64,000 nt of DNA from positions 640,001 to 704,000 of the forward strand of contig CBDFGR010000003.1 of assembly GCA_965247115.1 (NCBI GenBank), read 5' to 3'. The stretch is from Myxococcota bacterium. GTDB lineage: Bacteria > Myxococcota_A > UBA9160 > SZUA-336. The notes beneath the pieces were generated by a model that searched no databases, was not told the DNA's origin, and saw only the letters and a list, made by a program, of their open reading frames with translations. This document shows, one piece after another, positions 3,014 through 57,203 of this stretch (its first letter is position 1; the number at the start of each line of letters is the position of its first letter). Position numbers and translations under genes: made by a program.

Positions 3014-3428
3014 GGAGGTGGATGGAGGACTGCTGCCGAGCCGTTCGCGGCGCGGGAGAGGAAAGTCCGGGCTCCGTAGGGCAGGAAGGTGGCTAACGAC
3101 CACCCGAGGTGACTCGAGGGAAAGTGCCACAGAAAACACACGGCCCACCCCCGCCCGAGAGGGCGGGGCGGCAAAGGTGAAAACGTGGGGTAAGGGCCCA
3201 CGCGCGACAGCCGGGTGACCGGCGGCGAGGTAAACCCCTTCCGGAGCAAGCTCAAATAGGGGCGCAAACGGCCGGCCCGTCCGATGCGTTCGGCCTCCAC
3301 GCGAGGCGGGGCGCGCGCGCCCGGGTCAGAGTGCTCGAGCCCGTCGGTAACGGCGGGCCTAGACGAATGGTCCTCCAGGGGAACACGGCAACGTGTCCCC
3401 GGACAAAACCCGGCTTACAGTCCACTCC
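3014..3428 (+). ncRNA. rnpB: RNase P RNA, type A
   Basis: GAGGAAAGTCCGGGCTCC, GAAAGTGCCACAGAAAA, GGTAAACCCC..GGAGCAAG, AGACGAATGG and ACAAAACCCGGCTTA signatures; P1 pairing of the ends. Confidence 0.97.
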
Positions 3429-3500
3429 CGTCCTGGTTTGCAGGGCGGGACCCGGCGGAAGGAAGCTGAGAAATCGGCCACTTCCGCCGGGCTCCGGCAC
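3413..3500 (+). repeat. Copy 1 of rnpB 3' end plus two-hairpin trailer (putative attL)
   Basis: GCTTACAGTCCACT is identical at 57116-57129; ungapped homology continues to 3500/57203. Confidence 0.8.
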
Positions 3501-3759
3501 CCGTTGCTGGTCACTGTACCAGCAAATCGAGGGATTTGGACCCCGGAGGTGACGCTACTGGACTTCTGCACTGGACGAAGCGCCGGGTCGGGGGAGGCGG
3601 CTCTGGCTATTCCGCTCCCGCTCAATGGCCGGCCCTACAGCACCGACGCCGGTGAAGCCGCGGCTGCGATGACAGGAAGGCGGGGCCGTCGTCGTTCGGG
3701 TCGTGGGTGCGGAGTCTGTACAAACGGGCCGGGCGTGACGAGCCTGACAAACGCGCCGA

Positions 3760-5322
3760 TCAGTAACCCGGGCCGAGCATCGTGAGGTGCAGTGCCGCCC
3801 ATCGGCGTCCGTCCACCCCGAGGAGCTCGTTCAGGTCGTCGTCCCGGTAGGCGGCCAGGTTGCGCGCGGCCAGGCCGAGCGCCTCGGCGGCGAGGTAGAT
3901 CCGCTGGCCGACGCCGCCCGCCTCGAGCAGGAGATCGCGGTAGCTGCGGTCGCCCGCGCGGGCACGCGCGCGTTCGAGCCCGCCGACCATCACGAAGGCG
4001 ACCGCGGCGCTTCCGGCCTTTTCCTGTCCCAGGCAGGCGTCGACCAGCCGCTCGCGCAGATCGCCGCTCCGCAGCGGCGAGAGTCGACCTGCTTGCGCAG
4101 CGTAGCGATAGAGACCGGCATCGAGTCCCGAGACGCAGTGCGCGACTAGGTAGAGCGCGACGTCTGGGCTGCGCTCGAGGCCGGGATTTCTCTGCGTCGC
4201 CTCAAGCACGAAGTCGAGCTGGGAGCGCGCGACGGGTCCGGACTCGAAGCGGCGCGCCGAGCGACGCACGCGAATGCTCTCCTCGACGGAGGTCGCGGGC
4301 GCGCTCGCCGCGCGGGCCAGCGCCTTCCGCGCGCCCCCCTTGTCGGCCGCGGCCCCTCCACCCTTGGAGCTCGGGGGGGCCTTGGAGCTCGCGGGCACGA
4401 GCTTCGTCGCCTCGTGGTAGCGCTCGGGCACGGTTGCCCTTCCCGGGTGGTCCGCCTGCCCCTTCTCGCCGAGCGCGACTGCGAGCTCGTCTTGCGCGGG
4501 CCCTTCGCTGGCTGGTGCGCCGAGTGCGTGCAGCGCGCACACCGCCTCGCCCGTCCCGGCGACTCCCAGAAGCGCGCCCAGCCGGTCGTCAAGGAAGCGG
4601 AGCCAGGAGCGCTCCGCGAGGCCCGCCGAGTGTGCGGCCAGGCGCAGGTTCTCGCCGATGTGTCCCGAGTCGATCAGCGCGTAGCGATAGCCCCGGTTGG
4701 CGTAGCGCCACGTGTAGCGGGCGAAGACGTTGGTGAGGACCACGCATGCCGCGGCACCCTGGAGCGAGGCCGGCCGCTCGAGGCAGCCCGCCGCCTCGGC
4801 GAGGCGCGCGCCCTTCTCGAGTCGGAGCAGCGCATGCTCGCGAACCGAGTAGTAGTAGACGCCGGGGGCCAGACCCTCGACCCTCTCCGCGACGACGTAC
4901 ACCTCACCTGCGTAGAGCGCGCCCGCCGAGGGAGCGGCCCGGAGCGCGCGCCCTCCCCGCGGCGCCCGCCCGGTCACGCCGTTGGTCAGGTGAAGAACGC
5001 GCGCCAGCCGCGCAAGCAGAACGGGCTCGGCGCGGAATCCCGGCGCCGGCGCGAACCCGCGCACGGCCTCGGCGAGCGACAGTCCTTGCTCGTCGCCGGG
5101 GGCTGGCAGCGCCTGGCGCTGCGCGCGGGGGTAGGACTTGTAGGGCCGGGGGAGCCCGCGAAGCCGCGGGCGCCTTACGCCCAGGGCGCCCAGGCGCGTG
5201 TTGCGGGTGGCGCGGTGGACCTCGAGCGCGAGGTTCTCGCCCTCGGTCGCCCCGCTCGCGAACCACGCGAAGCCGCCCGCTACGAGGCGAAAGAAGCCTC
5301 GGCGGCGGATCTGCACGCCCAC
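3760..5322 (-). CDS. SagB/ThcOx-family dehydrogenase with tandem nitroreductase domains
   Basis: RAAPSAGALY, YRYALIDSGHIGENL, RRSARRF and second-domain YRDLLLEAGGVGQRIYL. Confidence 0.85.
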   Translation of the reverse strand: MGVQIRRRGFFRLVAGGFAWFASGATEGENLALEVHRATRNTRLGALGVRRPRLRGLPRPYKSYPRAQRQALPAPGDEQGLSLAEAVRGFAPAPGFRAEPVLLARLARVLHLTNGVTGRAPRGGRALRAAPSAGALYAGEVYVVAERVEGLAPGVYYYSVREHALLRLEKGARLAEAAGCLERPASLQGAAACVVLTNVFARYTWRYANRGYRYALIDSGHIGENLRLAAHSAGLAERSWLRFLDDRLGALLGVAGTGEAVCALHALGAPASEGPAQDELAVALGEKGQADHPGRATVPERYHEATKLVPASSKAPPSSKGGGAAADKGGARKALARAASAPATSVEESIRVRRSARRFESGPVARSQLDFVLEATQRNPGLERSPDVALYLVAHCVSGLDAGLYRYAAQAGRLSPLRSGDLRERLVDACLGQEKAGSAAVAFVMVGGLERARARAGDRSYRDLLLEAGGVGQRIYLAAEALGLAARNLAAYRDDDLNELLGVDGRRWAALHLTMLGPGY

Positions 5323-5626
5323 AAGTCTAGACCATGTGGAGCGACCGGCTCTGTTCGTAATCTTCGTGCTCTAGGCACAGGGGGTGAAGACGTATGGAGG
5401 CGGCGACCGGGGCTGGCGGGTACGTGGACTTCGAGCGCTACCAGGCCCCTAACGGCCTACAAGGTGCCCGCCAGCTCATACGGGTGCCGTGTGCTGCGCG
5501 CGAGGCGGCAGCTTGGTGATCACCAGGACATCGGTCTAGTCCAAATGGACTTCCTGACCACTGACGAGCTCCAGCGGGCCGTGCGACTGAACGCGAGCGC
5601 CCTCGGGGACCGCGAGCGCCAACGAC

Positions 5627-5658
5627 GGACGCGGGTTCGATTCCCGCCGCCTCCACCA
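5627..5658 (+). repeat. tmRNA (ssrA) 3'-end fragment, att-like, copy 1
   Basis: GGACGCGGGTTCGATTCCCGCCGCCTCCACCA = T-arm plus acceptor strand of tmRNA; no recognisable tag frame upstream. Confidence 0.8.
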
Positions 5659-5796
5659 TCGAACAGGCTCGAATCACCTTCCGGTCTGCCATCCTGGAGA
5701 CAGCTGTCGCCCCGCGCTCGGAGGGCCCCGGGCGACCGACGCCCGAGGTGTGGTAGAAGTTCGAAGCTCGGCCGCGAGCCGATTCAGAGGGATGCA

Positions 5797-55450: not shown

Positions 55451-55666
55451 ATGCGGACTTCGATCTCGCGGACCTTCGCCGGGGCGCTCCTCGCCGCTTA
55501 TCTCGGCTGCGACCTCGGCGAGTACGCGCGACCCGCGCCGAGCGGCGAGTGCCGAGAGATCGGCGCTCTATGCCAGCTCGAAAGCGGTCCGCTGGGCGTG
55601 TGTGAGAGCCGGCCCTGCCGGCCCGGCGAGACTCCGCTCTGCTTTACGTGCACGCCGCAGCACTGA
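55451..55666 (+). CDS. Small Cys-rich lipoprotein
   Basis: AYLGC lipobox; six further Cys. Confidence 0.5.
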   Translation: MRTSISRTFAGALLAAYLGCDLGEYARPAPSGECREIGALCQLESGPLGVCESRPCRPGETPLCFTCTPQH

Positions 55667-56138
55667 TGCGCGCAACAGGAAGCCGACGCACCGGGAATGG
55701 TCAGGACCCCGGGTCGGTTCAAGATCGGCTCCCGCTCAGCCTGATCCGGGCGTGGACGGCAACGTACGCGGGATCCGCCAGCGTGACGGCTTACGCGATA
55801 AATTGGCTCTACGGCAACTTCGCCGCGTTGGTCATCCCGGCTCGCTCTCCGGGATCACGGAGAGTGCCAAGCGATAGAGTTCGCGGAGGGACTTGTCAGG
55901 TCTGTGTGCTTCTGACAACCGAGCTCTTGAGACAGGTTCCCTCGCTGTGGGAGTCGGAGTGCACGGTCAGAAACGGCCGCTGACCGAACCTGTTGCACAC
56001 TAGGTTACGACGGCGCCTCGTCGCAGCTGCTTTACTCGCGCCCTCAAGACCCTGTAATATAGAGGAAAATCATCCTATGAGGGGTATCCGGGTCGGCCCG
56101 TCACACCTGCCGTCACCGACCCAACCCGGCGTGGAGGG

Positions 56139-57025
56139 TCAGCCGCGGCGGCGGTAGTCCTCCAGCGCCCTGCCCGCCTCGGCCAGCCCTTTTCGCTGGG
56201 CGTGAGCGTAGATGCCAAGGGTCACCGAGGCGCTGGCGTGCCCGAGTTGTTTCTGAGCAACATGGATCGGAGCACCGCTCTGCACCAGGTCGCTGGCCAC
56301 TGTGTGTCGCAGCGCGTGGCTCGGTTTCTTGCCTCGTATCTCGGCCCGATCATAGACGGCCCTGAGCCGACTGTGAACGCGTTTCGTCCACGGCTTCCCC
56401 CGTCGAGTGTCCATCTGGCACACGCGGTCCTTCGGCCCCTTGAACCGGAGTTCGCTGCGGTATTGGTCCAGCCACCGCACGAGCTCCTGCGCGTACACCG
56501 TCCGCAGCGCGGCCTGTGTCTTCGGCTGCCACCATGGCTTAGCCGTGACCGAGATGCACCCCTCCGCGACGTCAACATCCGACCAGGTCAGGTTGAGCAC
56601 TTCGCCCAACCTCATCCCGGTCGCGTGGCAGATCTTCAGCACTACGAGCGCCGGCACATCGAACTGCGCCGCCTCGAACACGAGAGCCACCTGGTCCGGC
56701 GTCAGCGTCTCGTCCTTCCGAGGGGAGGCGGCAGCAAGAGCCGCTTTAGGGGAACCTGCGGGTGGGGGAGCTCGTTCACCCACGCCCAGTTGAGGCACGC
56801 CTTCAGTGACTTCATGTCACGGTTGGCGCTCAAGACCGACGTGTCGTCAGCCCGCTTGTCCCGGAACTTGATCAGATCCTGGCGCGTGATGTATCGCTCG
56901 CGCGCCTCTGGGACCACCTCGTACAGCTTGGCGATCGCTATGCAATAGGACTCGTGAGTCTTCGGTCGCCTCGTGCGGCGCACGTCTTCGAGCCACTCGG
57001 CCGCGATGTCCGCGAACGTCTCCAT
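56139..57025 (-). CDS. Compact tyrosine recombinase (about 295 aa), frameshifted near 56725
   Basis: Core-binding N-domain; TGMRLGE, PKT, HALRH, LGH, IYAH; shift in a G/C run. Confidence 0.88.
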
Positions 57026-57029
57026 CCCA

Positions 57030-57058
57030 CAACCTCCTCGGCTTGGGACGGGAGGTTG
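57030..57058 (-). promoter_or_regulatory. Hairpin covering the recombinase Shine-Dalgarno sequence
   Basis: CAACCTCC (57030-57037) and GGAGGTTG (57051-57058) inverted repeat. Confidence 0.5.
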
Positions 57059-57115
57059 CTTGAACTGCGCACTCCTGAAACGTACGTAACCCTCTGCTGC
57101 GCATCACAATCCAGT

Positions 57116-57203
57116 GCTTACAGTCCACTGCCGCCCGATTCGCTCGGTCGTCACCCGGCGGGAAGAAATCGAGAAATCGACCACGCCCGCCGGGCTCCGG
57201 CAC
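57116..57203 (+). repeat. Copy 2 of rnpB 3' end plus trailer (putative attR)
   Basis: 14-bp identical core then ungapped homology to 3427-3500. Confidence 0.8.

Follow-up and report, generated by a model that had tools for sequence, protein, structure and literature searches.

A compact tyrosine integrase linked to duplicated RNase P RNA gene ends, and a predicted two-hairpin insert in helix P1, in a Myxococcota genome

Genomic islands detected by Islander are composed of a tRNA or transfer-messenger RNA (tmRNA) gene, a displaced fragment of that gene and a tyrosine integrase, and tandem arrays are recognised among them (125 among 3919 islands, according to the part of the article available; PMC4383910). 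The target classes of the TIGER/Islander resource are tRNA/tmRNA, coding or intergenic only (PMC12424338). The site of the Enterococcus phage phiEf11 in ffs, the 4.5S RNA gene, was published as novel, and the non-coding targets listed in the accessible portion of that article are tRNA, tmRNA and csRNA (PMC12540744). This article describes a 64,000-nucleotide (nt) stretch of a Myxococcota genome (assembly GCA_965247115.1, contig CBDFGR010000003.1, positions 640,001 to 704,000 of the forward strand; hereafter the window), in which the end of rnpB, the gene for the class A RNase P RNA, is duplicated and the second copy stands beside a compact tyrosine integrase.

The locus resembles the islands described by Islander in having an intact target, a fragment of its 3' end downstream in the same orientation, an integrase inside and an island-borne fragment predicted to restore the gene. 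It differs in its target, the RNase P RNA gene (RF00010), which is not scanned by Islander as the available text presents it, and in its fragment of about 85 nt, which includes a variable structured module differing by about 20% between the two copies. With phiEf11 it shares the apparent use of the end of an essential, non-tRNA structural RNA gene beside the integrase; as far as the accessible text describes it, phiEf11 uses another RNA, has a 27-nt identical core and is an intact prophage, whereas the present locus is probably a decayed island stack, with a diverged 88-nt block. No report of an rnpB attachment (att) site was found in titles and abstracts, and database supplements, which lay outside that scope, may record the target; rnpB is not mentioned in PMC12884075. 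New here are this integrase clade, an insert in helix P1 of the RNA and the sharing of that insert across genera, the last two being the least expected parts of the finding.

The duplicated rnpB end and its integrase

The genome analysed here (G000, 5.17 Mb; contigs C1, C2 and C3) was compared with two others of its genus, G001 and G002, and with G014, from a second genus of the same family. The window contains an RF00010 (RNase P class A) match at 3014-3433 on the plus strand, with 231.8 bits against a gathering score of 100. A first-pass annotation had noticed that 14 nt of the 3' end of this gene recur more than 50 kilobases (kb) downstream within an ungapped homology of 88 nt; both observations were borne out. 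The 14-mer GCTTACAGTCCACT at 3413-3426 is repeated exactly at 57116-57129 and has no other exact copy in the genome, and a recount of the block gave 67 identical positions of 88 (71 of 95 on extension). The two copies match by blastn with E = 6e-14, and the next best match in the genome has E = 0.056. The elements of the site are as follows.

3011-3498, plus strand: rnpB, class A RNase P RNA gene, predicted true extent with an extended P1 helix, from the outer P1 pairing and covariation
3413-3500, plus strand: left copy of the block (attL-like), 88 nt, from the crossover core to the end of P1
3414-3425, plus strand: shared core CTTACAGTCCAC, where identity among the gene and three integrase-linked sites starts; crossover placed by inference at its 5' edge
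3426-3491, plus strand: insert of 66 nt, folding as two hairpins, within the 3' strand of P1; a four-way junction and a GAAG/CCAY internal loop are predicted
3557-3576, plus strand: TGGACyTCT motif, +145 relative to the core, accompanied by a second ACTGGAC; probably part of the arm (P') of the element
56139-57025, minus strand: compact tyrosine integrase with core-binding and catalytic domains and no N-terminal arm-binding domain
57026-57115: integrase-side (P) arm, 90 nt
57116-57203, plus strand: right copy of the block, a truncated rnpB 3' end, whose insert is 94% identical to the G002 and G014 copies
57204-57230, plus strand: what is left of an arm that also occurs in G002 (matching as far as 57230) and in the G003 rnpB flank

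The recombinase starts at 57025, 90 nt from the right copy, and all 20 aligned homologues have the residues R139, K169, H237, R240, H263 and Y273, in agreement with the first-pass annotation of a compact enzyme with a full catalytic set some 90 bp from the second copy. That annotation had also seen no obvious arm-binding domain, and the structure model (mean predicted local distance difference test score, pLDDT, 87.8) consists of a helical core-binding domain and a catalytic domain only; it matches XerA, lambda Int 75-356 and Tn1549 Int without its N-terminus. Longer relatives carry 55-100 extra N-terminal residues, and their residue ~55-100 aligns to residue ~3 of the query. The core-binding plus catalytic fold and the R-K-H-R-H-Y set are those of other two-domain tyrosine recombinases (archaeal XerA 5hxy, XerD, lambda Int 75-356 and the integrase of phage Brujita, 5vfz), from which this integrase differs in being only about 24% identical; in contrast to three-domain integrases of the lambda type, it has no N-terminal arm-binding domain. 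The best NCBIfam score, 86 bits, falls below every cut-off for XerA, XerC, XerD and integron integrase (220-335), and the clade is small, with 17 representatives at E <= 1e-30. In G000 the gene is split, relative to the intact G002 copy, by a 1-nt deletion in a G-run near 56722; since the fumC gene of the same interval is also frameshifted, an assembly error is possible. The G002 protein is intact (297 residues) and an identical one is encoded at the Myxococcota locus L060.

The association of this clade with rnpB ends was found in three genomes of one family, G000, G002 and G014, two of them congeneric. G002 holds the same two copies of the block, 25.3 kb apart, with the intact integrase, and its integrase-att module is 98.4% identical to that of G000, the flanking core DNA being 87-89% identical. 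In G014 a 68%-identical integrase lies 139 nt from a truncated copy that is followed by tesB and a NAD-epimerase gene, and the order integrase, fragment, tesB, NAD-epimerase gene is repeated on three metagenome contigs. A search for the core in 201 genomes of the class gave 74 matches: 70 inside rnpB sequence, one chance match (in G507, not an att fragment) and three copies truncated at CTTACAG, all three of which stand 90-140 nt upstream of a member of this integrase clade. Double core matches in G342, G506 and G519 were rejected as att fragments, being two rnpB copies on separate contigs, probably from mixed bins (L268/L269, L270/L271 and L272/L273; the copies differ).

The fragments of G002 and G014 are identical to each other, although core proteins of the two genera are about 65% alike and the gene-linked inserts, in 680 inter-genus pairs, reach at most 92% identity (median 62%). 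The integrase-side arms of G000 (90 nt) and G014 (139 nt) are unalignable except for an 11-nt word. An identical fragment joined at the same base to two unrelated arms points to a crossover at the 5' edge of the core. Taken together, these comparisons of sequence make it likely that the integrase targets the 3' end of rnpB.

Wider searches returned little else. In a sample of 401 genomes of the phylum, among whose listed family genomes G014 does not figure, the clade is confined to G000 and G002. The DNA examined around other rnpB genes, about 3 kb per side for most, contained no tyrosine recombinase. Among 201 loci with integrase matches, no full rnpB or tail lies beside any distant one, and the 11 tail matches in these loci are all of the G000, G002 or G014 type. 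Viral contigs yielded no relative by catalytic domain, only distant integrases (<=43%) by alignment, and no match to the core-plus-insert pattern.

The predicted P1 insert and end of the RNA

The duplicated block extends well beyond the Rfam boundary at 3433, which stops short of the predicted end of the RNA at about 3498. Relatives show two kinds of gene end: TCCAC is followed directly by CTCC, or 46-71 nt stand between them. The CTCC pairs with the 5' GGAGGTGGA to form P1. In the window a contiguous P1 of the consensus type is not present, and the 66-nt insert separates the two halves of its 3' strand. The core of the gene is a full class A core (RF00010), and the difference from the Rfam consensus lies in this insert, which the consensus lacks. 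Its distribution over the class is patchy, with 39 genes that carry it and 30 that do not in the parsed set. The parse rule was independent of the 5' strand; four loci were dropped (one cut, two without a closing match, one without a 5' match), and the parse is still wrong in two genes. The surveyed loci comprise window 3426-3491, L003-L013, L023-L029, L047 and L268-L313; at L047 (G040:C98:21898-22419) the rnpB match falls into two pieces about 70 nt apart, which implies a further insertion inside the gene.

Several lines of evidence support the prediction that the insert belongs to the RNA. It is predicted to fold as two hairpins in all 39 genes, and a GAAG...CCAY internal loop is kept in 30 of them. 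In genes with the insert, Watson-Crick pairing holds for the three pairs outside GGAG/CTCC in 76 of 117 cells; swapping the 5' and 3' ends between genomes gave 54.5 +/- 4.0 (0 of 5000 shuffles as high). The same pairs are Watson-Crick in 86 of 90 cells in genes that lack it. An alignment of nine genes has 17 pairs changed on both sides against 7.5 in shuffles (0/500), and covariation within the insert structure is 0.273 against 0.112 (0/500 shuffles), with slid controls only 31-51% paired. Kin genomes are not independent, and these pairing and covariation figures therefore overstate significance. Sequence comparison thus predicts that the 88-nt block forms the actual 3' terminus of the RNase P RNA, the molecule ending near 3498 with a four-way junction in P1; the block would then span CTTACAG to the end of the gene, as is expected of a replacement fragment.

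The tail was also considered as signal recognition particle RNA or as a member of another Rfam family, and only RF00010 matched. The lineage-specific expansions of RNase P RNA named in the available part of PMC12974513 are P14, P18, P5.1, P18.0 and P10.1, and a P1 insert is not among them; no report of a P1 insertion was found in the literature at the level of titles and abstracts. The conserved GAAG/CCAY loop might be a receptor for a tertiary contact. A sediment contig has rnpB sequence joined to a right-copy-like tail at exactly 57116, which indicates that whole genes with such an end exist. RNA data from three runs covered the right site with small pieces of integrase or receptor only and are uninformative on expression.

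Proposed history of the site and contents of the interval

The first-pass annotation had taken the two copies as the attL/attR pair of one discrete rnpB-targeting element of ~54 kb. That they are att products is retained; a single clean 54-kb element is not supported, given that the copies are 25.3 kb apart in G002, that about 2 kb is shared between the two intervals and that about 36 kb of the present one is a nested remnant. The most plausible reading of the interval is that it represents the proximal unit of an island stack, heavily invaded by other DNA. The explanation judged probable is that an rnpB-targeting integrase acted in at least two integrations, that the right copy is a tandem junction and that the proximal unit was invaded later.

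The logic of integration is the textbook one for tRNA islands. The compact integrase likely cuts rnpB at CTTACAG and inserts the island, which would bring its own copy of the last ~85 nt and so keep the essential RNA whole. After at least two such events, the left copy would be the current end of the gene, supplied by the newest island, and the right copy a junction at which the integrase arm of the newest island meets the end and arm supplied by an earlier one. The distal host junction, including tesB, would have been lost since, and the unit at 3413-57203 would later have gained a prophage-like insertion of ~36 kb and small cassettes. With its integrase frameshifted, whether truly or by assembly error, the unit is probably immobile unless helped in trans.

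The right copy is read as a tandem junction because of the pattern of the +145 motif, the non-core DNA beyond it and the failure to find tesB in the genus. TGGACyTCT, whose frequency in G000 is 1.1e-5 per position, stands exactly at +145 at 4 of 82 sites, namely the left sites of G000 and G002, the integrase-linked site of G002 and the G003 rnpB, and it was not found after the tesB-flanked copy of G014; the right arm of G000 is cut off at 57230. In the absence of an arm-binding domain, the TGGAC arm words, the inverse of GTCCA in the core, may, speculatively, be accessory sites. The DNA beyond the right copy remains accessory, non-core sequence for 27 kb or more: C3:708-724 kb matches G002 in pieces dispersed among numerous contigs, and synteny is restored by 728 kb. 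C3:704-744 kb yielded no tyrosine recombinase, and a third rnpB fragment was not found before core genes resume. Neither G000, G001 nor G002 yielded tesB. The empty site had been expected to be rnpB followed by the TonB receptor; relatives instead show rnpB followed by tesB and the NAD-epimerase gene. Of 20 rnpB loci in the family, 10 have tesB or the epimerase gene no more than 1.1 kb away and 3 have one of them at 3-8 kb; 1 lacks both over 15 kb, and 6 have too little DNA for a call.

Several observations weigh against this history. A tandem member with its own integrase and fragment was not found beyond the right copy, and the +145 motif, at four sites in three related genomes, could be native DNA of the clade. 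The expectation of the first-pass annotation that homologues of the recombinase lie beside rnpB 3' duplications held in G000, G002 and G014 but not for two close homologues without an rnpB fragment, a 5'-truncated paralogue (G000 C2/G002 C32) and L134, which is 51% identical and has none in the 465 nt of upstream DNA examined; only a minority of 23 homologous proteins have a readable genomic context. The G014 assembly lacks the left end of the element, empty rnpB-tesB/epimerase sites are seen in other genera only (G002 is occupied and the rnpB of G001 unassembled), and other tyrosine recombinases lie inside the intervals of both G000 and G002.

A single integration, with 3413-57203 as one element, the right copy as the displaced host end and the accessory DNA beyond it acquired by other routes, is unlikely. 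It would account for the presence of only two copies with no third fragment, it has the standard geometry of tRNA islands as given in the accessible part of PMC4383910, and the flank of the right copy does resemble that of the G003 rnpB, which is among the closest to that of G000. However, identity between genera with such diverged core proteins would not be expected of a native end, the +145 motif occurs on both sides, and no host core gene follows the right copy; in G003 itself rnpB is without tesB in the following 713 nt, and tesB starts another contig. An ORF (open reading frame) downstream of the G003 rnpB has no Pfam match; it presumably resembles a helix-turn-helix protein of mobile elements.

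The integrase and fragment could also be an intact attP passenger, brought in by homologous recombination within the 88-nt block or by another integrase. The block has 17 identical nt at its distal end, proposed as the recombining stretch; integrase, arm, fragment and a 30-nt flank form one 98%-identical module in G000 and G002 with different DNA on both sides; and other integrases are at hand in both intervals. This origin is nevertheless improbable, since the G014 fragment lies next to the genes that follow rnpB in the host, as for integration at the core, and the junction with the fragment falls on one and the same base for two divergent integrase arms; even then, the site of the integrase would still be an rnpB end. 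That the 88-nt unit is a dispersed repeat, a terminator or a chance match unrelated to integrases has a negligible likelihood: the block does fold into GC-rich hairpins, but each genome has no more than two copies, the block covaries with the rnpB 5' end, and its truncated form stands beside this integrase clade alone (3/3).

The remainder of the interval, for which tandem integration followed by later invasion remains the favoured account, is an accessory patchwork. Common to the intervals of G000 and G002 are 76 nt after the left copy, the 2 kb at 10620-12590, three short pieces near 51.2-51.5 kb and the integrase module of 1.09 kb. The main features of the G000 interval, and those just beyond the right copy, are the following.

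5626-5658, 6467-6500 and 8870-8898, plus strand: three tmRNA 3'-end fragments bounding small cassettes
10620-12590: the one internal segment of appreciable length that also occurs in the G002 interval (94-97% identity)
12793-48692: nested prophage-like remnant, about 36 kb, with integrases, Prim-Pol, HNH, terminases and an Rhs gene
14292-15422, minus strand: tyrosine integrase of the nested element, 376 residues (PF00589, PF14659)
48631-48692, plus strand: tRNA-Ser(cga) 3' fragment, att remnant of the nested element
52825-55333, plus strand: TenA and frameshifted fumC, accessory cargo
57252-63710, plus strand: TonB-dependent receptor and kinase-WD40 genes, accessory, outside the copies in G000

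The nested remnant starts with a tRNA-Pro 3' fragment (about 12805) and ends with the tRNA-Ser(cga) fragment. It is missing from the G002 interval; a sister island lies between tRNA-Ser(cga) copies at C3:2329734-2401229. An ARAGORN tRNA-Ser call at 48608 was rejected as a real gene, its 5' part differing from that of the real one. Among the 90 ORFs of the window scanned with Pfam profiles, prophage modules are limited to terminases and one neck protein, all within the nested segment, with no capsid or portal; no relaxase or conjugation match was obtained, which places the interval outside the definition of an integrative and conjugative or integrative and mobilizable element. An ORF of 2098 residues at 38376-44672 (minus strand) has SpvB, TcdB-midN and RHS domains, an architecture of Tc B/C-like or polymorphic Rhs toxins, and C3 carries additional copies around 2.36 and 2.39 Mb. 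A 52-nt inverted repeat (87%; 15371-15422/30377-30428) lies at the start of the nested integrase, and a perfect 23-nt one (12618-12640/50868-50890) near the edges of the DNA that G002 lacks.

The real tmRNA gene is on C2; a second one proposed at 5380-5658 was rejected, only its last 33 nt matching. Further tmRNA 3'-end fragments occur at C1:306759, C2:786592, C2:2105711, C2:2151796 and C3:1493974, far from the real gene. The first-pass annotation had listed fumC, TenA and Rieske genes in the interval, with the caveat that they could be core genome. fumC (frameshifted) and TenA are indeed there, and no Rieske domain was found in the scanned ORFs. TenA, fumC and a nitroreductase are 95-96% identical in G002 at unrelated places (TenA several times), which marks them as mobile accessory rather than core genes.

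In G002 the TonB/kinase block is inverted and lies inside the two copies. A tandem 4.1-kb duplication (89%) of the Ser/Thr kinase-WD40 gene follows the TonB receptor (59663-63711 and C3:703752-707844). A second, partial copy of the right-hand tail occurs in G002 at L052:2620-2665, joined at the +145 motif; its junction is a perfect 8-bp inverted repeat around 3 nt and may mark a secondary recombination site. The truncated paralogue (G000:C2:2114964-2117247, G002:C32:811239-812088) has about 85% DNA identity to the G014-type gene and is interrupted in G000 by about 1.4 kb. A 2.9-kb stretch of cargo on a G014-type contig (L132:8906-11796) is 99% identical to G000:C2:814900-817790, which indicates recent gene flow between the two genera.

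Implications for RNase P RNA and its islands

Island finders based on tRNA and tmRNA genes are blind to rnpB islands, so that such hotspots would be missed or logged as intergenic, and because of the P1 insert Rfam-based annotation likely trims about 65 nt off rnpB in many members of the class. The 3' motif of RNase P RNA hardly varies, and a crossover there would offer a small two-domain integrase a broadly conserved target. As the island-borne copy carries a variable structured module, integration may alter an essential ribozyme beyond merely repairing it. It is conceivable, if rather doubtful, that integrases swap this structured module between genera, each integration replacing the 3' 85 nt of the RNase P RNA; were this the case, the patchy distribution of the P1 expansion, with 39 genes bearing it and 30 not, may partly reflect the spread of mobile elements.

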